Positions 1 through 20,514 of a stretch of 32,358 nucleotides of DNA are shown one piece after another. The notes under the pieces are model-generated. The model made no database searches and was not told the origin of the DNA. It worked only from the letters and a program-made list of their open reading frames with translations. The first letter of the stretch is position 1. Each line of letters starts with the position of its first letter. The translations under genes were made by a program, and so were the position numbers. This DNA comes from a virus (taxonomy: Duplodnaviria > Caudoviricetes). The stretch spans positions 1-32,358 of IMG/VR virus record IMGVR_UViG_3300044724_000125; one strand, written 5' to 3'.

Positions 1-37
1 TGACCACTACCGAACTTGGTTTCAAGGAAAATATGGT

Positions 38-295
38 ATGAAATTATACGATATCAAGGTTGGTCGAAAGTGGGTGTTTATTCGTTCAAAATCTCACAGG
101 GCGAGACTTCCACTTGCGAAGTTTAAAACACAAGCGTTTGTTCAATGGCATTGTGATGCAAGAACTCACGCTAGTTCAGAGACTTACGCTGAAACAGGTA
201 GGTATAAAAAGAGCAGAGGTTGGTGGAAAAACTATGGTTTTGAATCTAATCCTGCAGATGTAAATTATGACCGAGGACACTTGATATGGAAATAA
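38..295 (+). CDS. hypothetical early protein (85 aa, basic)
   Basis: ATG-initiated ORF overlapping the next ORF; no recognisable motif. Confidence 0.55.
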   Translation: MKLYDIKVGRKWVFIRSKSHRARLPLAKFKTQAFVQWHCDARTHASSETYAETGRYKKSRGWWKNYGFESNPADVNYDRGHLIWK

Positions 296-507
296 ATGAA
301 AACATATGCGTTTGTGAAATGTGTAAACTTCCTTCCGATTTCGGTAAAGAAGTTTCTCGTGAAGTAAACGACACCGAAGGTTTTATAACTTATGAGCATG
401 GAATCATGTATGGTTCTGTGGAAGATGAAGATACTTATTGGTGTAATGATTGTTCTGAATCAGAAACAAAAGCTTACAACGAATGGTTTTGGGGGGAAAC
501 TACATAA
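286..507 (+). CDS. small acidic protein with two CxxC pairs (possible Zn ribbon)
   Basis: GAGGA RBS upstream; CEMC and CNDC motifs. Confidence 0.6.
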   Translation: MEINENICVCEMCKLPSDFGKEVSREVNDTEGFITYEHGIMYGSVEDEDTYWCNDCSESETKAYNEWFWGETT

Positions 508-535
508 ATATAAATACTTACCTGTGCTATCTCAC

Positions 536-565
536 TTGACAAGAGGTAGCACTTGGGGGTACAAT
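536..565 (+). promoter_or_regulatory. sigma70-type early promoter P1
   Basis: TTGACA (536-541), 18 bp, TACAAT (560-565) in an intergenic gap. Confidence 0.75.
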
Positions 566-615
566 GCTCGGCAACTAACGACTGCTCACTCAGTCATTTT
601 AAAGGTACTTACTTT

Positions 616-876
616 ATGAAAACAAAATGTGAAAATCCTAATGGTCTTGCGAATATGAAAGCTATTAAAGATAAAAAAGCTAAAAAGCTAATGATATTTA
701 ACACTCTATGGAATGTTAAACAATACTTAGCTGAACATAATTATCGTTTATTATCTAATCATTCTTTTAAAAATGATGTTTATACTTTGTATAACAGAGG
801 TTCTAAAATTATTTCTGTTAAGCCTTTCATACAAAACTATGACCATATTAAATATCAAATCGAGGTAATCAAATAA
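616..876 (+). CDS. hypothetical early protein; start reassigned to ATG 616
   Basis: AAGGT upstream of ATG 616; the track start at 553 lies inside the promoter. Confidence 0.65.
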   Translation: MKTKCENPNGLANMKAIKDKKAKKLMIFNTLWNVKQYLAEHNYRLLSNHSFKNDVYTLYNRGSKIISVKPFIQNYDHIKYQIEVIK

Positions 877-1148
877 TGAAACAAGGACACTTAATAAATA
901 AAATTAATAAACTTATCCCTGTTGCAAAAGCAACACCTATGTCAGAATTTTATGATGACGATAGTACAGGTATTTGGATAAGAGGTAGTGAATATTCCTA
1001 CAAAGGTTCTTTATCTTATGATAGATTATTATTTGAATATTACTTAGAGGACGAAGCTGTTCATCCAGACTTAGCAAAAATAATAGAAGATGCTAATTGG
1101 ATGTGGGAACCTTATGATGCAGGTACATTAATGCTTTATCCTAATTAA
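876..1148 (+). CDS. hypothetical early protein (90 aa)
   Basis: GAGGT RBS, TAATG stop/start coupling. Confidence 0.75.
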   Translation: MKQGHLINKINKLIPVAKATPMSEFYDDDSTGIWIRGSEYSYKGSLSYDRLLFEYYLEDEAVHPDLAKIIEDANWMWEPYDAGTLMLYPN

Positions 1149-1171
1149 ACTATTTACCCCTGTGTTCTCAC

Positions 1172-1201
1172 TTGACATGGGGGTTGCTTTGATGCTAAGA
1201 T
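1172..1201 (+). promoter_or_regulatory. sigma70-type early promoter P2 (extended -10)
   Basis: TTGACA (1172-1177), 18 bp, TG-c-TAAGAT (1196-1201); flanks homologous to P1. Confidence 0.7.
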
Positions 1202-1206
1202 AGTGG

Positions 1207-1425
1207 CAACTAAATGAGCAGTAAGCAAAAGAGCTGAAAATAAAATCAGATAAAATAATAATGCTTACTTCTAAGGGACATGGAGAAACACCAGCGTAAT
1301 AGCGAAAACTTGTAAAACTATTTCAAAATAACCTGCATGAAACTCCCCCGACTTAAACATTCGCTATAGATTTGTTTTAGAAATTACCATGTGCTAGTTC
1401 ATGGTTAAAAACTAACTAGCACCTT
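1207..1425 (+). ncRNA. putative structured leader/ncRNA A
   Basis: No long ORF; stems AGTAAGCA(1220-27)/TGCTTACT(1262-69), GGGA-CATG(1275-82)/CATG..TCCC(1336-47), ATAGCGAA(1299-1306)/TTCGCTAT(1360-67), terminal pseudoknot 1386-1421. Confidence 0.5.
1386..1421 (+). promoter_or_regulatory. H-type RNA pseudoknot PK1
   Basis: S1 ACCATG(1386-91)/CATGGT(1400-05); S2 (T)GCTAGTT(1392-99)/AACTAGC(A)(1414-21); loop TAAAAACT. Confidence 0.7.
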
Positions 1426-1454
1426 TATTAACCTTAATAACTATGGAGATAGAT

Positions 1455-1880
1455 ATGTCAAAATTGATATACAGCAGAAATGGTAGCGAGACTACTGAAA
1501 GCATTACTAATGCACAACCTCAGATTCAAGCAATATGGAATCAAGCACATAGATTTGGTGCGAATATTGTAAGAGTAAGAGCAGAAAAATTACGCTATGG
1601 TAATAGCACAGGTAAAACTTTTAATTCTTTTCATGAAGGTTATGTATCAGTCTATAAGCAAAAAGATAAAATTCATGAGAGTGATGCCTTATACTTTGCT
1701 AGAAAAATACCTCTTACCAAAGTAAACAAAGGTATGCAAATACTTGAGATAGCATCTAATGTAGATGTCCAAGATACTTTAGATACTATTGATACTATTC
1801 AATACTACTCAGAGACTTCTTTCTTAGGAAGACTTTACAATAGAATTGTTTACGGGACACCAATGTCTATAAATTCCTAG
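1455..1880 (+). CDS. hypothetical early protein; start likely ATG 1455
   Basis: GGAG at 1445-1448 precedes in-frame ATG 1455. Confidence 0.75.
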   Translation: MSKLIYSRNGSETTESITNAQPQIQAIWNQAHRFGANIVRVRAEKLRYGNSTGKTFNSFHEGYVSVYKQKDKIHESDALYFARKIPLTKVNKGMQILEIASNVDVQDTLDTIDTIQYYSETSFLGRLYNRIVYGTPMSINS

Positions 1881-1894
1881 ATTAAATTCGGGGT

Positions 1895-1923
1895 AAGTGT
1901 GGGTATCACTTGAAAACTACCCA
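1895..1923 (+). promoter_or_regulatory. H-type RNA pseudoknot PK2 (followed by T7 tract, may double as terminator)
   Basis: S1 AAGTG(1895-99)/CACTT(1907-11); S2 (T)GGGTA(1900-05)/TACCC(A)(1918-23); loop GAAAAC. Confidence 0.62.
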
Positions 1924-1956
1924 TTTTTTTAACGCTAATATTTTTGGAGATATATT

Positions 1957-2409
1957 ATGGCACAGATGAGAGTAAAAGACCAAGACCTAGTTGTAGAACA
2001 GGTTGTAGAAAAGATTGAAGCTACTGAACTTAATAAGTTCAAAGCTCGTAAAGATGTTCAAGCAGTTCAATCTGATATTGAAGCAAGAATCGAAGTAATT
2101 TCAAGACTTTTTGAACAATACAAAAAGCTTGAAGAAAATATCAAAGCTGAACAACAAGAACTAAAAGATTTAGTCCAAGGATTTCAAAAAGCTAATGGTT
2201 TTGAATATAGTTCTTATGCTACTAAACAAGGTATATGGTTAGACAATATTTCAACATATGGTGTTTCAATCCCTGAACTAAAACTTGTATGGCAACTACC
2301 TTATACAAAAAAGCATGAGATATCTACTAAACTCAGACTTCAAACTATGGGTGGAGACTTTGATGTCTACAAACTTATTGAGGAGTTGACAGCAGAGTTT
2401 AGTTCGTAG
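1957..2409 (+). CDS. hypothetical coiled-coil early protein (150 aa)
   Basis: GGAG RBS; heptad-like helical N-terminal half. Confidence 0.8.
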   Translation: MAQMRVKDQDLVVEQVVEKIEATELNKFKARKDVQAVQSDIEARIEVISRLFEQYKKLEENIKAEQQELKDLVQGFQKANGFEYSSYATKQGIWLDNISTYGVSIPELKLVWQLPYTKKHEISTKLRLQTMGGDFDVYKLIEELTAEFSS

Positions 2410-2415
2410 TATAAT
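2386..2415 (+). promoter_or_regulatory. sigma70-type promoter P3
   Basis: TTGACA (2386-2391), 18 bp, TATAAT (2410-2415). Confidence 0.8.
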
Positions 2416-2418
2416 AAT

Positions 2419-2703
2419 TTTGTAGTTAGAAAGTGAGCCTTATAAAATCCTTTGGAGTCCATTATAAATCCTAGATTAAATTCGGGGACATGGAAAACAT
2501 CAAGGTTAGGATAAAAGTAAATGAGAACTAAACCACCATGCACTAACTACAAATTTGTCCGAGGAACTATCTGCGAGTTTCACAATGATTGTTGCAACAG
2601 TCGTGGAACTAAAGAAGAGAAGGACAAACACTCATCAGTCCCTAGAGTGTGAGTATAAATCTAGGATAGGGGTAGGTTGGTAGTCCTACACAAAAAACTA
2701 CCA
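2419..2703 (+). ncRNA. putative structured leader/ncRNA B (~285 nt)
   Basis: Begins at the expected start of P3; 11-bp stem 2419-29/2543-53, long hairpin 2554-2628, two pseudoknot candidates 2630-2665 and 2672-2703. Confidence 0.55.
2672..2703 (+). promoter_or_regulatory. H-type RNA pseudoknot PK3
   Basis: S1 GTAGG(2672-76)/CCTAC(2685-89); single T; S2 TGGTAGT(2678-84)/ACTACCA(2697-2703); loop ACAAAAA. Confidence 0.7.
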
Positions 2704-2724
2704 CTTAATTTATAGGAGATAAAT

Positions 2725-2973
2725 ATGCAAACTATATATCAAATCGTTGAAGAGGTATGCTTGAGAGACTTTCCAATTCTTGGAAGACTATCTGAAGCAC
2801 AACAAAATAAATTTATTGACAACATCTATCAAGATGTATTGTCAGGTGATAATCCTTCTGAGATTGCAGAGCATGAACTGTATGATTACATTGAAGAGTT
2901 TATTGTAAAGTCTATTATAAAAATGTTAATATCTTTGGAGGAAAACTCTAATGCCTTACAAAACATGTCATAG
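2725..2973 (+). CDS. small acidic hypothetical protein
   Basis: AGGAG RBS; no motif. Confidence 0.7.
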   Translation: MQTIYQIVEEVCLRDFPILGRLSEAQQNKFIDNIYQDVLSGDNPSEIAEHELYDYIEEFIVKSIIKMLISLEENSNALQNMS

Positions 2974-3415
2974 TTGTGATGAAACCAAAGAATTAAACAA
3001 GGATAATTTTCCACTTAGAAAAAATAAAAATGGTGTTGGTTATCGAGCACAATGCAGGTTATGTTATAACAAATTAAGAAGAACAAATCCAAGATATGCT
3101 AGAAAAAAATCTATTCAATTAGCAAAGGACAGGGCAGAGAAAAAAGGACTAGAGTTTAATTTATCATTAGATAAAGTTGTGTTTCCTGATACATGTCCAA
3201 TACTTAACATCAAGTTAGAACATGGCAATCAAGATTGGCAAACCTCACCATCTATTGATAGAATAGACAATAGTAAAGGATACACACTTGATAATATTAT
3301 TGTAGTGTCAGCACTTGCAAACAGTATTAAAAACTGTGCTACTTGGAAACAAATAATACAAGTAGGAAAATTTTATAAAAATTTAGAAAAGGAGAAGAAC
3401 CATGCCAAAATATAA
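2951..3415 (+). CDS. HNH/His-Me-like endonuclease with N-terminal Zn ribbon (possible homing endonuclease)
   Basis: CHSC...CRLC; CPIL...SPSIDRIDNSKGYTLDN...AN..K motif typical of phage HNH-like nucleases. Confidence 0.7.
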   Translation: MPYKTCHSCDETKELNKDNFPLRKNKNGVGYRAQCRLCYNKLRRTNPRYARKKSIQLAKDRAEKKGLEFNLSLDKVVFPDTCPILNIKLEHGNQDWQTSPSIDRIDNSKGYTLDNIIVVSALANSIKNCATWKQIIQVGKFYKNLEKEKNHAKI

Positions 3416-4127
3416 TTTGCTATCTAGTGGTAGCACCAAGATTGAAAAGAGCAACAAGCTATCTGACAAATACTTTAGTCGGATAGTTTATTTAGCACCT
3501 GATGATTTAGCAGATGGCAAAAGAACTTTATGTCCATATGCTAAGATTGCCAAGTGTAGTGAAGCCTGTTTGAACACAGCAGGGATGGGTAAATTTTCTA
3601 ATGTTCAGCAGTCAAGAATTAGAAAATCTCTACTGTTTTTAAACGACCAGCAGGAGTTTATGAGACAGCTTGTACAAGACGTAAATAAATTTCTTAAGGA
3701 ATGTGATAGGCTTGGTAAAAAACCTGCCCTACGTCTTAATGGTACAAGTGATATTCAATGGGAAACTATCGAGGTTGATGGGTATAAAAATATCTTTGCC
3801 ATGTTTCCACAGATACAGTTTTATGACTACACAAAAATTCCAACACGTAAGGTAGAGCACATACCTAATTATCATTTGACTTGGTCTTACTCTGAAGCCA
3901 ATGATAAGTATGCTACTCTGTTCGATAAAGTCTCGAACAACATAGCAGTAGTCTTTCGTGATGCTCTACCTAAAATGTTTAAAGGTTTGAAAGTAATTGA
4001 TGGGGACAAACATGACATGAGATTCTTAGATGAAACTCAAGTGGTGGTAGGACTGATTGAAAAAGGTGAAGCCAAGAAGGATACTTCAGGCTTTGTAATT
4101 GATTTAATAAATGCGAGGGCAATATAA
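3402..4127 (+). CDS. phage Gp88-like protein (Cys triad, radical-SAM-like)
   Basis: CPYA..AKCSEACLNTAG, RLNGTSDI, FYDYTK, YHLTWS, IDGDKHDMRFLD motifs recalled from the GP88 family. Confidence 0.7.
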   Translation: MPKYNLLSSGSTKIEKSNKLSDKYFSRIVYLAPDDLADGKRTLCPYAKIAKCSEACLNTAGMGKFSNVQQSRIRKSLLFLNDQQEFMRQLVQDVNKFLKECDRLGKKPALRLNGTSDIQWETIEVDGYKNIFAMFPQIQFYDYTKIPTRKVEHIPNYHLTWSYSEANDKYATLFDKVSNNIAVVFRDALPKMFKGLKVIDGDKHDMRFLDETQVVVGLIEKGEAKKDTSGFVIDLINARAI

Positions 4128-4402
4128 TGTATGCAGAAAAACCAAAACCAGTAAACAAATACTTACAAGCAACTGATGTAGAGATAGCTGAAGTTGAAAT
4201 GGATAGGAAGTTCGAGGAACTTTATGATGGTATCGAAGATTTAAATTATAAACAAGAAGATTTTGAAGCTGATATTGATACTGTTCAATCAGATGTGGCA
4301 GATTTAAACATTGAAGTTAGTGGTTTGTTAAGAACTGTAGAAGACTTACAAGATACTATTCAAGAACTACAAGATAAACTAGAGGAACTAAATGATGAGT
4401 GA
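4127..4402 (+). CDS. highly acidic coiled-coil protein
   Basis: About 28 D/E in 91 aa with heptad hydrophobics. Confidence 0.7.
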   Translation: MYAEKPKPVNKYLQATDVEIAEVEMDRKFEELYDGIEDLNYKQEDFEADIDTVQSDVADLNIEVSGLLRTVEDLQDTIQELQDKLEELNDE

Positions 4403-4670
4403 AGACTATGACTATAAAAAAGCTACTATAATAGTAGAAAAAGCAATATCAAAAGCATTCTTTAATGGCTATGGCTTAATGTTTAAGTACCACAAGATTG
4501 AAACAGGTGAGTACGAACAACGAATGCTGTTGACTGTATCAGATATTAAATACAACCATGATGATGAAATTTTAGTAGGTGGTTGTATTAATAATGATGG
4601 GGATTACAGACAATTCTTTTTAGAAAACATGGAGTCTGTTAAACCTTTTAAGTATGTGTCTATTGACTAA
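4392..4670 (+). CDS. stand-alone WYL-like domain protein
   Basis: F.Y....G....R....L.G.....YRQFFLENM pattern resembles the WYL R-x-F signature; GAGGA RBS. Confidence 0.5.
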   Translation: MMSEDYDYKKATIIVEKAISKAFFNGYGLMFKYHKIETGEYEQRMLLTVSDIKYNHDDEILVGGCINNDGDYRQFFLENMESVKPFKYVSID

Positions 4671-4681
4671 GGAAAACTTTT

Positions 4682-5152
4682 ATGACAACTAAAAAAGACA
4701 AAGGTCGTTGGGTATATCAATTTACTTGTGCTGATACAGGTCAAAAAGTTTGGAAAAGATATACTAACGAAACAAGTGAAGATGTAATCAAGTTTTTAGA
4801 ATCTAAGAACTTAAAGTACATACTCAAAGGTGCTAACAATATTTCTATTTATACACATAAAGCTAAGTTTTCTTATTACTATACCACAGGTAGAGGAACA
4901 GGACTTTTTAATAGTGCATATCATGGTATGAAAGTACAAAAATATCTTCAGTTTAAAAACATTGAAGCTTTTTACAAAGAATTGTTAGAGCCTACTTTAA
5001 AACAAGAAGAAAAAAACTTAAACATTACTGAGGATAGTGTTAATGAAAGGTATGTCTACGAGAAAACAACAGGTAAAAACTTAAGTGAAACTTTTTATCC
5101 GAGGTATAGTGTTGATTTTTATGAGAAAGTTGACAAAAAAGATTGCTTATGA
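4682..5152 (+). CDS. hypothetical protein (156 aa)
   Basis: AAGGA RBS, intact ORF. Confidence 0.7.
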   Translation: MTTKKDKGRWVYQFTCADTGQKVWKRYTNETSEDVIKFLESKNLKYILKGANNISIYTHKAKFSYYYTTGRGTGLFNSAYHGMKVQKYLQFKNIEAFYKELLEPTLKQEEKNLNITEDSVNERYVYEKTTGKNLSETFYPRYSVDFYEKVDKKDCL

Positions 5153-5158
5153 TACAAT
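5130..5158 (+). promoter_or_regulatory. sigma70-type promoter P4 (extended -10)
   Basis: TTGACA (5130-5135), 17 bp, TG-a-TACAAT (5153-5158). Confidence 0.8.
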
Positions 5159-5186
5159 ATATCTTTTTATTTAAAGAGGATTATTT

Positions 5187-5402
5187 ATGGAATTTATATT
5201 AATAGTAGTGGGGGTTGTTATATTATTAACGACAACAGTTTTGTACATGTACTTGGTAGATGAGGAAAAGATAGAACCACACTACCCAACTACTGCACAG
5301 CGTGGAAACTTTTGGGATGCAGAGACTAAGAAGTTTTACAAGTGGGATGAGTTAATGGAACTTAAAAAAGAAAGAGAGGAACAAAATGACAGAACACATT
5401 GA
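5187..5402 (+). CDS. small membrane-anchored protein
   Basis: N-terminal ~24-aa hydrophobic helix; GAGGA RBS. Confidence 0.75.
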   Translation: MEFILIVVGVVILLTTTVLYMYLVDEEKIEPHYPTTAQRGNFWDAETKKFYKWDELMELKKEREEQNDRTH

Positions 5403-5586
5403 TGCTGTTGAACAACAGAGACAAATGCTTGAGTTAGAAAAACAAGCAAAGCGAGTTGTAGGTATTGACACAAGGTACAAAGATGGGTTATGGTATAAAC
5501 AAACAGTTGACTATGCTGATGGGCGAAGGGTTACAGAGTATAGAGATAAACGCAGAGCAACGATAGAGGAACATTATGAAAGGTGA
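5386..5586 (+). CDS. hypothetical protein (66 aa)
   Basis: GAGGA RBS, overlapping gene chain. Confidence 0.7.
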   Translation: MTEHIDAVEQQRQMLELEKQAKRVVGIDTRYKDGLWYKQTVDYADGRRVTEYRDKRRATIEEHYER

Positions 5587-5764
5587 AATATTTGGATTTG
5601 GAATTGGGTTAATGGTGGCTTTAATATTAATGAATGTAGTATTTATCGTGGAAGAAGTTAAAGAACAGAAAGGACAAAGCTATGAAGTTTGTCGAGATAA
5701 ACTGTTCAAAGCTTATCCACAAGAAGTAGATTACAAAAAGTGGAGGACATGTATTAATGGCTAA
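5576..5764 (+). CDS. small membrane protein with Cys pair
   Basis: GAGGA RBS; one TM helix, two Cys in C-terminal part. Confidence 0.7.
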   Translation: MKGEIFGFGIGLMVALILMNVVFIVEEVKEQKGQSYEVCRDKLFKAYPQEVDYKKWRTCING

Positions 5765-5906
5765 GACATGGACGAAGAGTACACATACTTCTGCTACACA
5801 AGGCAGAGGTAAAAAGACAAGTCAAGGTAGAGGTAATGTTGCTTTCTCTACCATGAACAAGAACAAGAAAAGCAACTTTAAAAAATATCGAGGGCAAGGA
5901 AAATGA
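5757..5906 (+). CDS. 49-aa basic peptide ending KKYRGQGK (not in ORF track)
   Basis: GGAGG RBS; MAKTWTKSTHTSATQGRGKKTSQGRGNVAFSTMNKNKKSNFKKYRGQGK fills the gap with overlapping start/stop; resembles small YRGQG-terminated peptides of marine phages. Confidence 0.75.
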   Translation: MAKTWTKSTHTSATQGRGKKTSQGRGNVAFSTMNKNKKSNFKKYRGQGK

Positions 5907-6144
5907 ATATTAAAATATTAAAAAACAAAGTAACTATTGAATTGACTACAAGCGAGTATGATGATATGTTCAAATACATTAACAAACTTAGAAGCATGTT
6001 ATCTACTTTGCATGAGACAAATGATTTGTGGTTGTCTGATGTTCATAATTTAGACAGTTTACAATATGATTTGGTTAATCTATTAGATGCTAAATGGGAT
6101 GCTGGTAGTTATAGATATGTTAAACGAGGGCAAGGTAAATGAAT
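5889..6144 (+). repeat. 20-bp direct repeat pair (5889-5908, 6125-6144)
   Basis: CGAGGGCAAGGAAAATGAAT vs CGAGGGCAAGGTAAATGAAT, 19/20 identical. Confidence 0.85.
5903..6142 (+). CDS. hypothetical protein (79 aa)
   Basis: ATGA-coupled at both ends. Confidence 0.7.
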   Translation: MNIKILKNKVTIELTTSEYDDMFKYINKLRSMLSTLHETNDLWLSDVHNLDSLQYDLVNLLDAKWDAGSYRYVKRGQGK

Positions 6145-6330
6145 GAGAAACAAATAACAATTAAAATTCCAGCAAGACATTTAGAATGGATTAAAAAGAA
6201 CTATAGTAAATCTAGAAGTGGTGTGACCAGTTTGTTTGAGTATGGTGGTATAGATATCCAAGAGGTACATGCCATAGCAGACTTACTGTATCATCTTAAT
6301 GAAGCATTTGAAATTGAAGGTGGTGAATGA
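6139..6330 (+). CDS. hypothetical protein (63 aa)
   Basis: ATGA-coupled at both ends. Confidence 0.65.
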   Translation: MNEKQITIKIPARHLEWIKKNYSKSRSGVTSLFEYGGIDIQEVHAIADLLYHLNEAFEIEGGE

Positions 6331-6824
6331 ACATATTTTATTTTGATGAGTGTCCTACTATATCAGCAGAAGCACAGCCTGATAAGATGTTAGTCAAGAT
6401 GCCACTGGAAACAGCACAGATGTTATGCACAGCACACCGAGAACTAGATGGTGATGAGTATGCAGATGCTAATGGACTTTACAAACGTGCATACTGGAAT
6501 CATCCATGTACTATATGGGCTAGAGAATCTAGCTCTAATTACTCGTGGTTATACAAACACTTCTTAGCATTAGGACTTGAGTATGAGTACAGGTATGGTA
6601 GGAAACATGCAAGTGTGGTCAAGCTAGAAGAACCGTTGAGTAAGATGCCTGACAACATTACACATACAAGTCTGACACCACTAGCACAGGCTATGCCTGA
6701 GGAGTATAAGAATGAGGATGCTATTATTGCTTATCGTGATTACTGCATTAACGAAAAACACTATGCCAAATGGGAACGCAATAGAGCTAAGCCTATATGG
6801 TGGTCAACACAGGAGGTTGCATGA
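6327..6824 (+). CDS. pyrimidine dimer DNA glycosylase/DenV-related family protein
   Basis: MNIFY.D...DK..VKM.LE.AQML.TAH, NHPCT.W, EY..RYG..H, QAMP..YK..D...AYR.Y motifs. Confidence 0.7.
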   Translation: MNIFYFDECPTISAEAQPDKMLVKMPLETAQMLCTAHRELDGDEYADANGLYKRAYWNHPCTIWARESSSNYSWLYKHFLALGLEYEYRYGRKHASVVKLEEPLSKMPDNITHTSLTPLAQAMPEEYKNEDAIIAYRDYCINEKHYAKWERNRAKPIWWSTQEVA

Positions 6825-7042
6825 ACTACATATACGAAAGGATGATGGCTGAAGGAGAGACAGCTATCTTTGACCGAAATGAACTCAGAAAGTTTGAAAA
6901 TTATGTAGCTAAAAACTATACAGAATTTTATGAAAGCAAAGCAGGATATGAGATAGAAAAGCAAGGAGAAGAGTTCCTTGTTACGCTGTTTAAAAATCCT
7001 GTTATAACAATGGAAGATATTTTGCTTGACATTAGAGATTAA
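6821..7042 (+). CDS. hypothetical protein; start likely ATG 6821
   Basis: AGGAGG RBS and ATGA overlap. Confidence 0.7.
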   Translation: MNYIYERMMAEGETAIFDRNELRKFENYVAKNYTEFYESKAGYEIEKQGEEFLVTLFKNPVITMEDILLDIRD

Positions 7043-7054
7043 TCAGTGTATAAT
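7026..7054 (+). promoter_or_regulatory. consensus sigma70 promoter P5 for the replication module
   Basis: TTGACA (7026-7031), 17 bp, TATAAT (7049-7054). Confidence 0.88.
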
Positions 7055-7089
7055 GCACTCATTAAAATGCCAAAACAAAGGAGGATTAT

Positions 7090-7542
7090 ATGGCAGTATT
7101 AGAAGGAAAAGCCTACTGGGCATCAGTAACAACACCAAACACTACGTTTGAGCCTGTGTATACAGTTGACTTAGTTGTGGGAGAAGATGTTGCCGATGAG
7201 TTTCAAGCTCGTGGGTTTAAAGTAAAAGACTTATCTGTTAAGGATGAGAGTGGTGGTGCGACACCTATTGGTAGAGCACTTACAATAAAACGTAAAGTTA
7301 ATGGACCAAATGGCATGGTAAGAAATGCCCCAAAACTTTTCGATAAAAATAAAGAACCATTAGATGCTATTGTTGGTAATGGCTCGACTGTTAAAGTACA
7401 GTATAACGAGTGGGAAACCGACAATAAATATGGTAGCTTTAAAGGCTTGGATTTTCAAGCTATGCAGGTACTTGATTTAGTATCTTTAAAATCACAGGAT
7501 GGCTCTGAGTTAGACCCATTCGGTGATGGAGAAGAATTCTAA
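7090..7542 (+). CDS. ssb: single-stranded DNA-binding protein (T7 gp2.5-like)
   Basis: G.A.WA.V..P, P..FD.....L...VGNGS.VKV, A.QVLDLV; acidic tail ending in Phe; position before primase-helicase. Confidence 0.8.
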   Translation: MAVLEGKAYWASVTTPNTTFEPVYTVDLVVGEDVADEFQARGFKVKDLSVKDESGGATPIGRALTIKRKVNGPNGMVRNAPKLFDKNKEPLDAIVGNGSTVKVQYNEWETDNKYGSFKGLDFQAMQVLDLVSLKSQDGSELDPFGDGEEF

Positions 7543-7796
7543 TGATAATTACCATCAACAATGACGAGGGGACTACAAACTTTGATGTAAATAATATTAG
7601 TGACGATGCTGTAAAGCAAGAAGCAACTGTTATTGTACAAAAAGTAGGTAATTTGCAAGTCGTAATCGAGGCTTTAGATTTTGCTAGTCGTACTCATAGA
7701 GCTAACTTGGAAGAGTTGCTTAAGGGTAGAGACGAAGCTATTGTTGAGTCTGAGCCCGAGCCCGATGTAGTAGAAGAAGATTCAGACGAATCCTAA
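7542..7796 (+). CDS. acidic hypothetical protein (84 aa)
   Basis: TAATG coupling to ssb; acidic tail. Confidence 0.75.
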   Translation: MIITINNDEGTTNFDVNNISDDAVKQEATVIVQKVGNLQVVIEALDFASRTHRANLEELLKGRDEAIVESEPEPDVVEEDSDES

Positions 7797-7816
7797 TTGC
7801 TACATCTATCTCCAAC

Positions 7817-7850
7817 AAAGCCTCTCTATTTTAGGGAGGCTTTTCTTTTT
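7817..7850 (+). terminator. Rho-independent terminator
   Basis: AAAGCCTCTCT-ATTTT-AGGGAGGCTTT hairpin followed by TCTTTTT. Confidence 0.85.
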
Positions 7851-7863
7851 ATAGGAATTAATT

Positions 7864-9525
7864 ATGAATCAAAGTAAATTTGTAAAGTATCATGTGCCTT
7901 GTCCCGAGTGTAAAAGCACAGATGCATGTTCAATAAACGAGGATGGTTCAGCTAAATGTTTTAGTTGTGATGCCTTTTTTCCTAAATATTCAAACGGAAC
8001 AGTTATGTCTACAGAAAATTATAATAAATCCACACCCACACCTAAAGTTTTGAATGCTCATGGTGGTATTTTTGCAAAGCTAACCGACAGAAATATAAGC
8101 AAAGAGACAGCAGAAAAGTTTGGTGTCAAGGTTGTTTATGATGGGGCAGGTCAATTAGCACAGCACCTGTATCCATTCTATATAAATCATGAACAGTGTG
8201 CTACGAAGATTAGATACATACGAGACAAACGTTTCTCTTTTGAGGGGACAATACAGGGCTCGGGATTATTTGGACAAAATTTATTTAAAGAGGGTGGTAA
8301 ATACTTGACAATTGTTGAGGGTGAATGTGATGCTATGGCTACCTATGAATTGTTAGGTAGTAAGTGGGCAGTTGTTTCCATTAAACGTGGTGCTGCTTCA
8401 GCAGTCACAGACATTAAAGAAAGCATTGAGTATGTCGAAAGTTTTGATAATGTTGTGATATGTTTTGATAAAGATAAGGCAGGAGAAGATGCTGCAAAGA
8501 AAGTCGCAACAATACTTAAGCCCGGCAAAGCAAAGATTGTTACGCTTCCTAATGGGTACAAAGACCCTAACGATATGCTGAACAAAGGAAGACACCAAGA
8601 GTTTACAAGAGCTTGGTGGGATGCACAAGTTTATACACCGAGTGGGATTATTCGAGTGGCTGATAAACAAAAAGAGTTTCTTAATCGTGAACAGAAACAA
8701 AGTGTTCCGTATCCTTGGGATGGTTTAAACAAAAAACTTCTTGGTCTGAGAGCAGGAGAGCTTGTAACTCTTACAGGTGGAACAGGGCTAGGTAAGTCGA
8801 GTGTTACTCGTGAGTTAGAACATTGGTTAATAAAAGAAACAAATGACAATGTTGGAGTCATTGCTTTGGAAGAAGATTGGAAACGTACAGTGGATGGTAT
8901 CCTTTCTATTGAAGCAAACGATAAACTATACATTGACAGTACTCGTAATAGTTACACAGAGAATCAATTGACAAATATGTTTGACAGAGTTTTTGCAAAC
9001 GATAGAGTATTTATTCATGCTCACTTTGGTGCTAATGATATTGAAGAAATCTTTGCTAAGCTACGCTACCTTATTGTGGGTTGTGATTGTAAGTGGGTAG
9101 TTGTAGACCATCTACACATGCTTGTTAGTTCAATGCTTGATGGTGATGAACGTAAAGCTATTGATAGTATTATGCACAGACTACGTAGCATGGTAGAAGA
9201 AACAGGTGCAGGGATTATCCTTGTCTCTCACCTTAGAAGAGTTGAAGGAAACAAAGGACATGAGAATGGTATTACTGTAAGTCTTTCACACTTACGTGGT
9301 TCAAATAGTATAGCCCAATTATCAGATTGCGTGATTGCCCTCGAAAGAAATCAACAATCGGATGATGATTTAGAATCTCGCACAACGAATCTTCGTGTGT
9401 TGAAGTCTAGATATACAGGAGATGTTGGCAACGCTACATCTTTAGTGTATAATAAAGACACTGGGAGATTACATGAGTATGAAGACTCAGAGTTATTACA
9501 TGACAGTGATGCCATTCCATTTTAG
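7864..9525 (+). CDS. DNA primase-helicase (T7 gp4-like)
   Basis: Zn finger CPEC...CFSC, TOPRIM EGECDA and CFDKD, Walker A GGTGLGKS, VVVDHL, HLRGS. Confidence 0.96.
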   Translation: MNQSKFVKYHVPCPECKSTDACSINEDGSAKCFSCDAFFPKYSNGTVMSTENYNKSTPTPKVLNAHGGIFAKLTDRNISKETAEKFGVKVVYDGAGQLAQHLYPFYINHEQCATKIRYIRDKRFSFEGTIQGSGLFGQNLFKEGGKYLTIVEGECDAMATYELLGSKWAVVSIKRGAASAVTDIKESIEYVESFDNVVICFDKDKAGEDAAKKVATILKPGKAKIVTLPNGYKDPNDMLNKGRHQEFTRAWWDAQVYTPSGIIRVADKQKEFLNREQKQSVPYPWDGLNKKLLGLRAGELVTLTGGTGLGKSSVTRELEHWLIKETNDNVGVIALEEDWKRTVDGILSIEANDKLYIDSTRNSYTENQLTNMFDRVFANDRVFIHAHFGANDIEEIFAKLRYLIVGCDCKWVVVDHLHMLVSSMLDGDERKAIDSIMHRLRSMVEETGAGIILVSHLRRVEGNKGHENGITVSLSHLRGSNSIAQLSDCVIALERNQQSDDDLESRTTNLRVLKSRYTGDVGNATSLVYNKDTGRLHEYEDSELLHDSDAIPF

Positions 9526-17500: not shown

Positions 17501-19465
17501 CTATAATTTTGGTTGTAGTTCTCTCATTTCAATCAGTGTTTCTAAACTCTGACCTGCCATCTGATAAAAGCCTTCGATGTTATCTGACAACATATTGTTG
17601 GCATAGATATCTGTAGACTCGTACCATGTTTCTTGGTCGGGCAATGTTACTAACCTATAGTTATTAAAGTTAGGAACAAACCCCATGTAAGCTATGATAG
17701 TATTCTCTGACCCATACTCACCCGTCTCTTCTTGTTTAGCTTCAACATCATCTTGTGCATCTTGTAAGTTCTGAGCTATGACATTAGCTACAGTTTGTTC
17801 AGCTTCTGTGGCTGATGTATCTGTAGAGACTGACACATCTATTTGACTTTGTAAAGTTTGAGTAGTGGTTGTATCAACTGCGACACTAACTGTTTCAACT
17901 GTCTCAGCTTCAACACTTGTAGAGCTTGTAACACTAGCACTCATATCTAACACTTGATTGTTTTGTGCAGTAGAAGATGCAAATTGTTCTGATATACTAG
18001 GTGAGTTACTGGTACTTACACCACCACCAGAATTAGACGATGATACGCTAGAAACTCCTGTCGTTCCACCTGTAGCGTGTATAGAGTTTCCTGATGTAGT
18101 CCCACTAACACTAGACTTAGCTGTGCTTAGAGTAGACGAGACAACACGTAACGCTGTTTCTTTACTTATTGAACTCTTTTCTTCTGGTAGTACAGCACCA
18201 ACAACAACCTCTTCTTCTATTACCTCTTCTATAACCTCTTCTTCTTCAACGAGTTCTTCAATAAGTTCTTCTTCCGGCTCTTCTGCATACGCAAGTTCTT
18301 CTTCCACAATTGTCTCTTCCTCAAACCACTCCTCCACTTCTTCAATAAATGTTTCTTGAAATACAAACTCCTCAATCATTAACTCTTCAATTGGTATAAA
18401 GACTTCTTCTTCACGTATAAACGGAAGAGGTTCTACAAATTCTTCAAGTGGTTGAAACTGTTCAAAGATTATCTCTTCTTCAAACACGTATTCAGGTTCT
18501 TCAAAAGTATCATACTCAGGTTCAAAGATATACTCTTCAAATATTTCTGGCTCTTCGAAAGTGTCATACATGTCATACTCTTCATAACCATAGTTAAACA
18601 GTTCTTCTTCGTATCCGTAGTCAAAGTATTCTTCTTCTTGATAGTAGCCTATGTCTTCTTCTTGTCGATAGCCTTGACAAAATGGTCCATACTGTGGGTC
18701 AAGGTCACATTGAAAATCATCATATGCTTCCCAATACCCTGCACAGCTTACATCGTTGAGTGCATTACTACAATCAATACCACCCTTTGTACTATACAAC
18801 GAACCACCATCTTCTAAGTTTTGATTTTTATCTGAGTTATTCCAATCATAGTTGTAACAAGATGATGTATTCGTAGAGCCTGTGTTACATTCATCGTGGT
18901 AGTAATAGGTGTATATCTCATCAGACTTACCTTGCTCACCAATTAAAACATCGTGCTGAATAATATCTAACTTACCATATCTAAACTCATAAGAGTCATT
19001 AGTCCAAAGTATTACTTCAAAGCTGTTATCAGATGCACGATTGTATTCACGCATATCATACCAACCGAAGACTGCTTTATCACTAAAGTTTTTTGCTAAC
19101 ATTTTAGAGTTGTTATCTCTAATGAGGTCAGTCCAGAATGGAAAGAGTGTATAGTTGTATTGTGGAAGTGGGTCAGGTGTATAGTCACCACAGTAATTAT
19201 TATAGTTTATATTACCTGTACCCAAACCAAAGTGAAGACATCCATTTGTAGCCATACGAGCAGATGTAAAAGAGTCTCCATAAAAATCAAATGTAAAATC
19301 TAAATTAAATGCAGACGAAAGCTGGTCGTCTCCAGAGTTTAGATTGGTTGTATTTGATTCGTTTGTGAGGTCTACTAAAGACTGATTGCCTTCATAGATA
19401 TACTGACTAAAGACATTAATACTTAAGAGACACGCTACTGCGTAGCATAGAATTCTTTTTTGCAT
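17501..19465 (-). CDS. exported protein: nidogen(NIDO)-like domain, Cys motifs, Glu-rich and Ser/Thr-rich regions
   Basis: Signal peptide; GDD......L.F.F.FYG..F.....TNG...F and PFWTDL; long Glu-rich tract. Confidence 0.7.
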   Translation of the reverse strand: MQKRILCYAVACLLSINVFSQYIYEGNQSLVDLTNESNTTNLNSGDDQLSSAFNLDFTFDFYGDSFTSARMATNGCLHFGLGTGNINYNNYCGDYTPDPLPQYNYTLFPFWTDLIRDNNSKMLAKNFSDKAVFGWYDMREYNRASDNSFEVILWTNDSYEFRYGKLDIIQHDVLIGEQGKSDEIYTYYYHDECNTGSTNTSSCYNYDWNNSDKNQNLEDGGSLYSTKGGIDCSNALNDVSCAGYWEAYDDFQCDLDPQYGPFCQGYRQEEDIGYYQEEEYFDYGYEEELFNYGYEEYDMYDTFEEPEIFEEYIFEPEYDTFEEPEYVFEEEIIFEQFQPLEEFVEPLPFIREEEVFIPIEELMIEEFVFQETFIEEVEEWFEEETIVEEELAYAEEPEEELIEELVEEEEVIEEVIEEEVVVGAVLPEEKSSISKETALRVVSSTLSTAKSSVSGTTSGNSIHATGGTTGVSSVSSSNSGGGVSTSNSPSISEQFASSTAQNNQVLDMSASVTSSTSVEAETVETVSVAVDTTTTQTLQSQIDVSVSTDTSATEAEQTVANVIAQNLQDAQDDVEAKQEETGEYGSENTIIAYMGFVPNFNNYRLVTLPDQETWYESTDIYANNMLSDNIEGFYQMAGQSLETLIEMRELQPKL

Positions 19466-20514
19466 TGCCTTTTAGTTTTAGTTTTAGTTGTATAAATAAC
19501 TTTGACTGCCCCAACAACATCTTTGTTTATCTTGTCTCTGTTAGGATTTCTGTCGTGTGTGCATTGCTTTATAAAAAGTTTTTCTTGTTCTTTAGCATCG
19601 GGTCTTTTAGATTTGTTTTCTGCCCAAGCTTTAGTTGCTTCTTTACCTATCTGACCTTGGTAAGGGCAAGGAGTACCAGCCATTTCCATAGCCTTAAATA
19701 CTCTCGGGTCTTGACAAAGTATAGATACTGAAGCCACTTTCATACCGGTATCATATAGATACTTGGAAAGTTTTAAGCGTTCACAGTTCTCGTCAGTTAC
19801 AGTTGCTCCTGTAGAGAACCCAAATACTTGCCCTTGAAAAGCACCAGAACGACCTACAGTACAGAGGTCTTGTGAGTAAGACATAATACTAGGTGCTATA
19901 GCAGAAGCAGGAGGTGCTTTGCTTTTTACGTTCTGGTTGATTGTTTGAGTAGAGTTGGACTCGTTAATATTTCTGTTAGTGTTATCAGACTTGGTATTGT
20001 TATTATTGGTATTAGTATTGTCAGTAGTAACATTAGAGTCTGAAGTCGATGTATTAACGTTAGTATTGTTATTAGTATTTGTATTGTTACTAGTAGAATT
20101 ACTGTTGTTATTTACGTTTTGATTTACTGTAGAGTTTACAGTAGAGTTAGATGTAGACGTAGATGTGTTGACGTTGTTATTATTGTTAGTATTTGTCGAA
20201 GTGTTATTTGATGTCGAAGTATTTACATTAGTATTATTTGAAGTATTAACATTAGTATTATTATTAGTGTTAGTATTTACATTTGTATTGTTATTAGTAT
20301 TGGTGTTTGTATTTGTGTTAGTGTTTGTATTATTATTGGTGTTAGTATTTGTAGTCACGGTAGTATTAATGGTAGTTAAACCATTGTCTTCACAATACTG
20401 TGTACCGGCTGTACAATCACCAACGGGGTCTGCTTGTACACCAAACGAAAACGCTAGTAATCCTAATATAAATATTGGTCCTAAAAAATCTTGGTTCAGC
20501 CCTCTCCTTGTCAT
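19435..20514 (-). CDS. exported protein with Asn/Thr repeats and Cys-rich C-terminal domain
   Basis: Signal peptide ending VQA; ~150 aa of NTN repeats; APS...DLC...D.NCERLKL...LCQD.RV..AM..AGTPCP. Confidence 0.8.
   Translation of the reverse strand: MTRRGLNQDFLGPIFILGLLAFSFGVQADPVGDCTAGTQYCEDNGLTTINTTVTTNTNTNNNTNTNTNTNTNTNNNTNVNTNTNNNTNVNTSNNTNVNTSTSNNTSTNTNNNNNVNTSTSTSNSTVNSTVNQNVNNNSNSTSNNTNTNNNTNVNTSTSDSNVTTDNTNTNNNNTKSDNTNRNINESNSTQTINQNVKSKAPPASAIAPSIMSYSQDLCTVGRSGAFQGQVFGFSTGATVTDENCERLKLSKYLYDTGMKVASVSILCQDPRVFKAMEMAGTPCPYQGQIGKEATKAWAENKSKRPDAKEQEKLFIKQCTHDRNPNRDKINKDVVGAVKVIYTTKTKTKRQCKKEFYATQ
19930..20375 (-). repeat. low-complexity coding repeat (Asn/Thr)
   Basis: Imperfect GTATT/GTGTT-rich repeats on + strand encoding NTNTNNN/NTNVNT. 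Confidence 0.9.

Follow-up and report, generated by a model that had tools for sequence, protein, structure and literature searches.

The window, that is, the whole stretch of 32,358 nucleotides analysed here, is a 32-kb fragment of a virus record and is 62% complete. It encodes a T7-like primase/helicase, a family A DNA polymerase, nucleases and a class I ribonucleotide reductase, and the phage is a podophage related to Pelagibacter phages HTVC115P and HTVC103P. The nearest cultured phages are HTVC115P, HTVC103P and HTVC104P (a group described in the available part of bioRxiv 10.1101/2019.12.14.876532), with 51% identity for the polymerase and, relative to HTVC115P, 61% for the reductase. The region of interest is situated in the early region between ORFs for 150 and 82 amino acids and forms an array of four modules with predicted RNA folds, M1 to M4, the last two of which are H-type pseudoknots (Table 1). 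A free-standing HNH/endonuclease VII-like gene (2951–3415) lies 250 nt 3ˊ of the array; close relatives, L006 and L017 among them, have no such gene at the equivalent position. Elsewhere in the window, a 359-aa ORF on the minus strand (19435–20514) contains a long Asn/Thr-rich low-complexity tract.

Table 1. Features of the array and its surroundings (positions in the window)
Feature	Position	Strand	Details
M4-topology pseudoknot ending leader A	1386–1421	+	
Second copy of element x, then M4-type pseudoknot	1868–1924	+	Element x 1868–1893, pseudoknot 1894–1924; between two ORFs; no promoter-like plus-strand site just upstream
Upstream 150-aa ORF	1957–2409	+	Matches no PHROG or Pfam family
Sigma-70 consensus promoter	−35 2386–2391, −10 2410–2415	+	12/12 match, TTGACA-18-TATAAT; overlaps the end of the upstream ORF
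M1, conserved structured RNA	2419–2553	+	P1 2419–2429/2543–2553; P2 2433–2435/2534–2536; P3 2438–2440/2508–2510; P4 2449–2450/2504–2505
Element x in the M1 variable stem	2463–2487	+	Held by CCAT 2459–2462/ATGG 2490–2493
M2, long form	2554–2628	+	GUCC/GGAC stem; purine-rich loop with inserted long hairpin 2576–2610
M3, H-type pseudoknot	2630–2671	+	S1 2630–2635/2649–2654; S2 2640–2644/2667–2671
M4, terminal H-type pseudoknot	2672–2703	+	A-rich loop 3; ends 21 nt 5ˊ of the start codon
U-rich spacer, Shine-Dalgarno and ATG of the next ORF	2704–2727	+	Shine-Dalgarno 2714–2718; ATG at 2725
Downstream 82-aa ORF	2725–2973	+	Matches no PHROG or Pfam family; the gene here differs between relatives

Positions 1–8000 contain 50 promoter-like sites, and the promoter preceding the array is one of the two that match the consensus perfectly. 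A preliminary description of this DNA had recognized this promoter and had it fire at about position 2420. The consensus promoter is present, but the start site is better placed at G2422. As judged from the sequence, this is the likely first nucleotide because the closing stem of M1 begins 6–7 nt after the −10 box in many relatives. The description's broader view of a promoter-driven, structured, non-coding region of no Rfam family was borne out.

Other early leaders are present in the window. Leader A (1149–1442) has a promoter at 1172–1201 followed by a second structured non-coding array, and it is conserved with indels in many relatives. In addition, two early promoters share a 40-nt flank (507–546 and 1143–1182) that is 73% identical, and each has its −35 box within an inverted repeat. 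These flanks are possibly a regulator site or a terminator/promoter cassette similar to the PeSLs of T4-like phages.

Comparative evidence for RNA structure

Folded as one molecule, the 285 nt of the array are unremarkable (z −1.66, with 12 of 200 shuffles equally good; minus strand, z −1.00), and thus the evidence for RNA structure is comparative rather than thermodynamic. All sequence stretches quoted in the preliminary description occur at the positions assigned to them, and covariation in relatives supports its 11-bp stem and M2 stems as well as the two pseudoknots. It overlooked the conserved inner helices P2 and P3 of M1, and the helix it proposed between CATGG (2489–2493) and CCATG (2536–2540) is not supported. 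This helix has a pairing probability of 0.09, compared to 0.62–0.72 for the CCAT/ATGG pairing that holds element x, and CATGG is found in only five of 67 distinct variable-stem segments. The proposal of a single multi-domain RNA of ~285 nt was likewise abandoned, as relatives gain, lose, nest and relocate each domain independently of the others. The region is non-coding, with stops in all six frames and variable-stem lengths distributed 18/27/22 across the three frames. These lengths break the frame of a 58-aa minus-strand ORF (2367–2543), which was ruled out on this basis, and a minus-strand hammerhead-like core at 2629–2636 was rejected because it is not conserved.

The M1 motif is a compact motif of ~100 nt present on well over 100 viral contigs, with four natural sequence classes (A to D). 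Its conserved unpaired segments are URUAAAAU (2441–2448) and URAAA..AURAGAACUAAAC (2512–2533). For class A, an alignment of 40 of the 58 distinct variants yields 94.5% paired cells, with two-sided changes in eight of 21 pairs. Model searches led to the divergent classes B (L289, L375 and others), C (L394, L414) and D (L448–L450). When 34 sequences of classes A–C are aligned with MAFFT, two-sided changes are evident in 13 of 16 tested pairs, and 89.9% of cells are paired compared to 21.5–51.5% in slid controls. P2 occurs as GUG/CAC, GCG/CGC and UCG/CGA, and all four P3 pairs covary. RNAalifold, unaided, finds P1 to P3 with 12 pairs, 11 of which show compensation; all of these covariation counts ignore kinship, and the sequences derive from one phage group, such that shared loop letters may partly reflect kinship.

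Two further features speak to the nature of the folded molecule. In every one of the 58 distinct class A variants (12 short, including that of the window, and 46 long), an indel of one base in the 5ˊ strand of P3 has its counterpart in the 3ˊ strand. Moreover, one-sided changes in M1 convert A-U to G-U pairs, which indicates that the plus strand forms the RNA. Across the four classes the stems vary while the loops are constant, and the fixed portions are the unpaired A-rich strands beside P3 and P4. This pattern suggests that loop identity is under selection, as would be the case for a binding surface. Presumably, the conserved A-rich loops resemble T-loop motifs, which would suit a compact surface like that of tRNA or rRNA. 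A small AGU/ACU hairpin in the 3ˊ loop seemed conserved in class A and was discarded because it is in a shifted register in classes B and C.

The P4 stem serves as an open socket for a freely variable insert, with a P4-to-core segment of 15–63 nt in 67 variants. This variable stem can carry modules that stand alone elsewhere. For example, element x is nested in M1 of the window and also free-standing further upstream, and it occurs in 15 distinct flank contexts across relatives. A second element behaves in the same way, being nested in L010 and standing alone in L209. The inserts of L045, L056, L115 and L154 contain tandem GA and CUGA/UGAYGA-like strands, which we take to suggest kink-turns.

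M2 has 31 distinct variants, comprising 12 of the long form, 18 short ones that lack the insert, and one tandem duplication. It folds with a z score of −3.6 relative to base shuffles, and its representative in L019 exhibits two-sided changes. For M3, the inner S1 pairs covary, some loop letters are conserved, and the one S2 pair left free by the search pattern is C-G, A-U, U-A, G-C or a wobble in 30 of 31 variants. M4 is a topological class and not a sequence family, with stems and loop 2 that vary freely (loop 2 measures 0–3 nt and has no fixed base), and pair counts for its first stem are weak because this stem is off register in three of the 11 aligned rows.

A generic pseudoknot scanner detects three M4-type knots in the 705 nt of early intergenic DNA of the window, compared to a mean of 0.18 and a maximum of two in 60 shuffles. 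Of 85 arrays (26 too-short spacers and seven of more than 330 nt left out), 67 have such a pseudoknot within their final 85 nt, versus one of 85 in each of three shuffles. These terminal knots end 9–34 nt before the ATG (median 23 nt), and the RBS is never overlapped by a module. Solitary M4-type pseudoknots are also found in L006, L012, L017 and at 1894–1924 of the window.

Module distribution and expression context

A search with the upstream protein returned 28 loci, of which 25 are full-length matches and 24 include sequence after the gene. At this orthologous site, M1 is present in 11 of the 24 relatives, M2 and/or M3 without M1 in two, only the last pseudoknot in three, other leaders in two, and no module in six, where the gene runs directly to the next RBS. 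Modules are lost at clean borders, at which short shared sequences are found; in L009, which lacks M1, the junction carries a 5-nt microhomology. The M1 model matches 24 of 28 contigs, 22 of these 24 having been chosen for the presence of M1, and two of six contigs picked by protein regardless of M1 carry the motif. M1 is single-copy in 23 of the 24 positive contigs, with one weak second match discounted.

Broader pattern searches gave 99 IMG/VR stretches with the M1 pattern and 120 metagenome loci with a looser version (~460 estimated, chance matches included), and the M1 model has 67 strong matches among the 100 of these 120 loci that were searched. There are 118 distinct spacers between M1 and the next ORF led by a Shine-Dalgarno sequence, 113 of which were classified (five over 450 nt were left out). 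The 113 arrays represent 32 combinations of 19 patterns defined by eye, with covariation support for M1 to M4 among these, and they precede ~39 rough groups of downstream proteins. In 13 of the 113 (including L040, L042, L072, L082 and L394), M1 is located before the primase gene, where the window has an intrinsic terminator (7817–7843) just 5ˊ of that gene. Primase relatives are found in about 750 IMG/VR stretches, and in most of the 80 primase loci the upstream sequence is not long enough to show M1.

At least 12 further recurring modules, several of them apparent pseudoknots and none in Rfam, are found in L019, L036, L048, L053, L076, L094, L101, L161, L166, L180 and L217. A 55.7-kb contig, G012 (L448, L449), has two diverged early regions, each with a class D M1 and different downstream modules, which looks like a duplication or a two-strain assembly. 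M1 is absent from the whole record of HTVC103P and from the 22.8 of 54.8 kb searched for HTVC115P, and the early intergenic gaps of these two phages contain no M4-type pseudoknot. Model searches found no M1 in E. coli and three other bacterial genomes. A scan of GTDB with a 21-letter M1 pattern, which would miss classes B–D, produced four matches, all of which lack the M1 fold (the best is partial and scores 27 bits).

A promoter-like 5ˊ flank is present in 78 of 121 distinct M1 contexts. The 121 flanks comprise 26 with a full sigma-70-like promoter, 18 with a −10 element only, 34 with tandem TG(T/A)(C/A)AC repeats, 12 that follow a pseudoknot, and 31 that are unclassified. The repeats resemble Pho boxes, are present in three or four copies at −29, −40, −51 and −62 from the stem, and thus have an 11-bp period. 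They replace the −35 box in the 34 contexts concerned (for example, in the 80 nt 5ˊ of M1 in L036, L037, L050 and L051), and the window has no such repeat. Their period fits the PhoB site given in the available part of PMC4447250. This resemblance suggests that phage early RNAs might be under host control of the PhoB/OmpR type, and OmpR-family regulators besides PhoB could bind such repeats.

Four loci (L115, L121, L155 and L210) carry units of terminator, promoter, M1, pseudoknot and terminator without an ORF, in which a strong terminator lies ~60–70 nt after the end of M1. No ATG-led frame of more than 41 codons occurs within 420 nt in the three such units checked. Terminator-ended contexts are rare, amounting to three of the 131 distinct M1 downstream contexts scanned (L210 was seen separately), and therefore most arrays are physically 5ˊ leaders. 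The earlier suggestion of an sRNA or a complex 5ˊ UTR is partly right on both counts: most arrays lead into an ORF, and the four promoter-to-terminator units have none. In L169, a tRNA-Glu(TTC) with an encoded CCA (1661–1737) is located between the last pseudoknot of the array and the RBS. Maturation of this tRNA would cut the array from the mRNA.

Contigs of relatives from the RNA libraries of four studies cover the region, in a form in which strand, ends and level are not readable and DNA is possibly present. Depth over 2404–2670 is the highest in two of four runs (X2 and X9) and second in X1, although contig depth cannot rank regions. One RNA contig skips M1 (2412 to 2552). This is not evidence of splicing because it matches the DNA variant L009, in which M1 is missing.

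Known RNAs and possible functions

No match at E ≤ 1 was obtained when the whole window was searched against Rfam 15, and a search of positions 1100–2800 returned chance matches only, none of them on M1–M3. In 20 related loci, tRNA was the sole significant Rfam match, and 15 loci covering M1 classes A–C had none. BLASTn of the region against 50,697 GenBank phages gave no match, and two related arrays gave chance matches of 25–36 nt only. Likewise, no description of these module arrays was found in the literature by title or abstract. Fremin et al. (2023; PMC10690425) used covariation to define 8,495 candidate viral structured RNAs from IMG/VR intergenic regions, and some of the modules may be among its unnamed candidates. 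The module motifs have no match in the part of its supplement that was searched, and its available text does not describe arrays or shuffling of the kind seen here.

P12 in the type A specificity domain of RNase P is flanked by a pair of facing T-loop strands. By eye, the specificity domain of E. coli rnpB resembles M1 in having an A-rich strand, a CC/GG helix with a variable distal end, UGAAA, a UAAGA loop and UAAAC. However, the 5ˊ strand of M1 that would be the partner T-loop strand forms the covarying helix P3 instead, the register of P2 differs, and the similarity does not rise above shuffles, 217–436 of 500 of which reach the local alignment scores. In addition, M1 models have no match on rnpB with filters off or on the E. 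coli genome. Mimicry of the 23S rRNA L1 stalk (helices 76–78) was also rejected, the score on the corresponding E. coli rrlH stretch being 8.4 bits (E 0.63). We therefore do not name a mimicked RNA.

Several phage and bacterial systems share individual features with the arrays. M3 and M4 have the H-type pseudoknot fold, predicted from covariation, of type III antitoxins (ToxI/CptI/TenpI), but the site has no tandem near-identical repeats, M3 and M4 differ from one another, and the flanking ORFs have no family match. The pseudo-ToxI of phage TE, according to the available part of PMC5086642, is a precedent for a phage RNA decoy acting against a host nuclease, and it similarly has H-type pseudoknots in series and A-rich single strands in a phage-borne RNA. 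Unlike these RNAs as they are described there, the arrays have stems that vary freely, no toxin gene nearby, and other modules that are not pseudoknots. RNAC and RNAD of T4, as presented in part of PMC3014915, are small phage RNAs of unclear role that are co-transcribed with tRNAs, which recalls the tRNA-Glu of L169. By that description, the arrays differ in that many module types are shuffled, nested and moved among loci, mostly without a tRNA. The PeSLs of T4-like phages are small early-promoter cassettes that recur in a variable early region with gene shuffling, as do the arrays. In the available portions of PMC4122927 and PMC2839356, PeSLs are terminator/promoter motifs, whereas the arrays are covarying folds 3ˊ of a promoter, of up to ~450 nt and with exchangeable inner content. 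A PeSL cassette was rejected for this locus, which has no terminator-like site and where M1 is single-copy as a rule.

We favour, as a reading about evenly balanced between right and wrong, that M1–M4 form an accessory cassette whose stable RNAs work in trans, likely serving as decoys or mimics towards RNA-binding factors of the host, with a cis-acting pseudoknot at its end. In this reading, the array would be transcribed by host RNA polymerase from the strong early promoter, and host ribonucleases would likely trim the transcript into stable small RNAs. Early in infection, M1–M3 would then likely act in trans and engage RNA-binding proteins or nucleases of the host, either as decoys or by mimicry of shape. 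M4 and the U-rich tract likely form a cis boundary that protects an RNA end and aids translation of the following gene. The covariation, the constancy of the loops and the independence of the arrays from the next gene support this reading, as do the four ORF-free units, the tRNA-Glu in the L169 array, the M4-type pseudoknots that both end most arrays and occur alone, and the coverage by RNA-library contigs. The patchy presence of M1, at 11 of 24 orthologous sites and in two of six unselected contigs, is that expected of an accessory gene. Weighing against this reading are the 5ˊ-leader position of most arrays and the failed resemblances to RNase P and the L1 stalk, either of which would have identified a mimicked RNA.

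The arrays are real and undescribed in the literature searched by title and abstract, and their mix-and-match, nested design is unusual. Catalogues of phage non-coding RNAs are very sparse, and the small number of known examples are single genes. In the present case, several strongly covarying motifs absent from Rfam are carried as interchangeable modules by a marine phage group that is common. Should the modules prove to be decoys, they might serve to identify the proteins of host defence or regulation that they bind in uncultured marine bacteria. The terminal pseudoknot is a possible general part for mRNA stabilization or translation. A tentative extension, which we consider possible but doubtful, is that the phage group carries an accessory arsenal at the RNA level. 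Some 20 small structured RNAs would be exchanged, reordered and nested, and expressed early (in some lineages from a PhoB-type phosphate-starvation promoter). Each would neutralize or co-opt a different target in the host, be it an RNA-binding protein, a nuclease or a defence sensor. M1 would be a new tertiary-folded mimic and scaffold, and the whole would be an RNA counterpart of anti-defence gene islands.

The main rival, which we consider rather unlikely, is that M1 is a cis-acting transcript device. Such a device might be a nascent-RNA antiterminator or processivity element, for which the put RNA antiterminator of HK022 is the model, or a 5ˊ-end stabilizer for long early-to-replication operons, with the other modules insulating the leader from RNases and Rho. 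The position of the M1 closing stem at the presumed start site in many relatives and of M1 before the primase gene, where the window has its terminator, fits this role. No RNA polymerase gene is found among 21 window proteins scanned from this 62% complete contig, and the gap-free structure would leave Rho little unstructured RNA. However, the strong terminators that closely follow M1 in the ORF-free units, and the invariant nested cargo such as element x, for which such a device has no need, are a poor fit to either function. Furthermore, some relatives have identical gene order without M1, and the plus strand of positions 1–8000 has only one terminator-like site. A further, improbable reading makes M1 (or M3) a new ribozyme, either self-cleaving or processing, by which the early transcript would be divided into stable pieces. 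Invariant unpaired nucleotides, freely varying P1 and P4, and the single-copy placement of M1 between genes in many contexts are in keeping with this role, but no Rfam ribozyme model matches the window or 35 related loci, and the RNA contig that skips M1 is explained by L009. Either an antiterminator or a ribozyme would constitute a new class.

The trans-acting cassette is likewise favoured over control of the next gene by M1 or the pseudoknots, as riboswitch aptamers or as operators bound by protein, which we regard as very improbable. These elements should track the class of the gene they control and overlap its expression platform, and the modules do neither: they precede ~39 unrelated protein groups, do not overlap the RBS and have no Rfam riboswitch match. 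Resemblance to the preQ1-I and SAM-II riboswitches was rejected on the absence of a fixed loop 2 base and of a conserved ligand-contact base in M4, on the distance of M4 from the ATG, and on the diversity of downstream genes. The conserved loop letters of M3 favour such a function, as does the layout of M4, U-rich tract and RBS, which resembles the T4/T2 gene 32 leader outlined in part of PMC3014915, where an A+U-rich tract separates a compact pseudoknot from the start codon. Compared to that leader, M4 precedes dozens of unrelated genes and not a gene for an ssDNA-binding protein, and its distance to the start codon is ~23 nt as opposed to 67 nt.

Least probable is that the modules are DNA-level devices, such as recombination cassettes like the T4 PeSLs or MITE-like mobile elements, whose RNA folding is incidental. 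Promoter-plus-structure cassettes common to unrelated gene contexts, short shared sequences at module borders and the microhomology in L009 are compatible with this origin. In contrast, the one-strand G-U wobbles, the pseudoknots and the compensated indel are characteristic of RNA, the sequence of the terminal inverted repeat varies freely (17 types), and M1 is nearly always single-copy. A DNA-level device as the sole role is thus largely refuted, while shuffling by recombination may be the route by which the arrays evolved.
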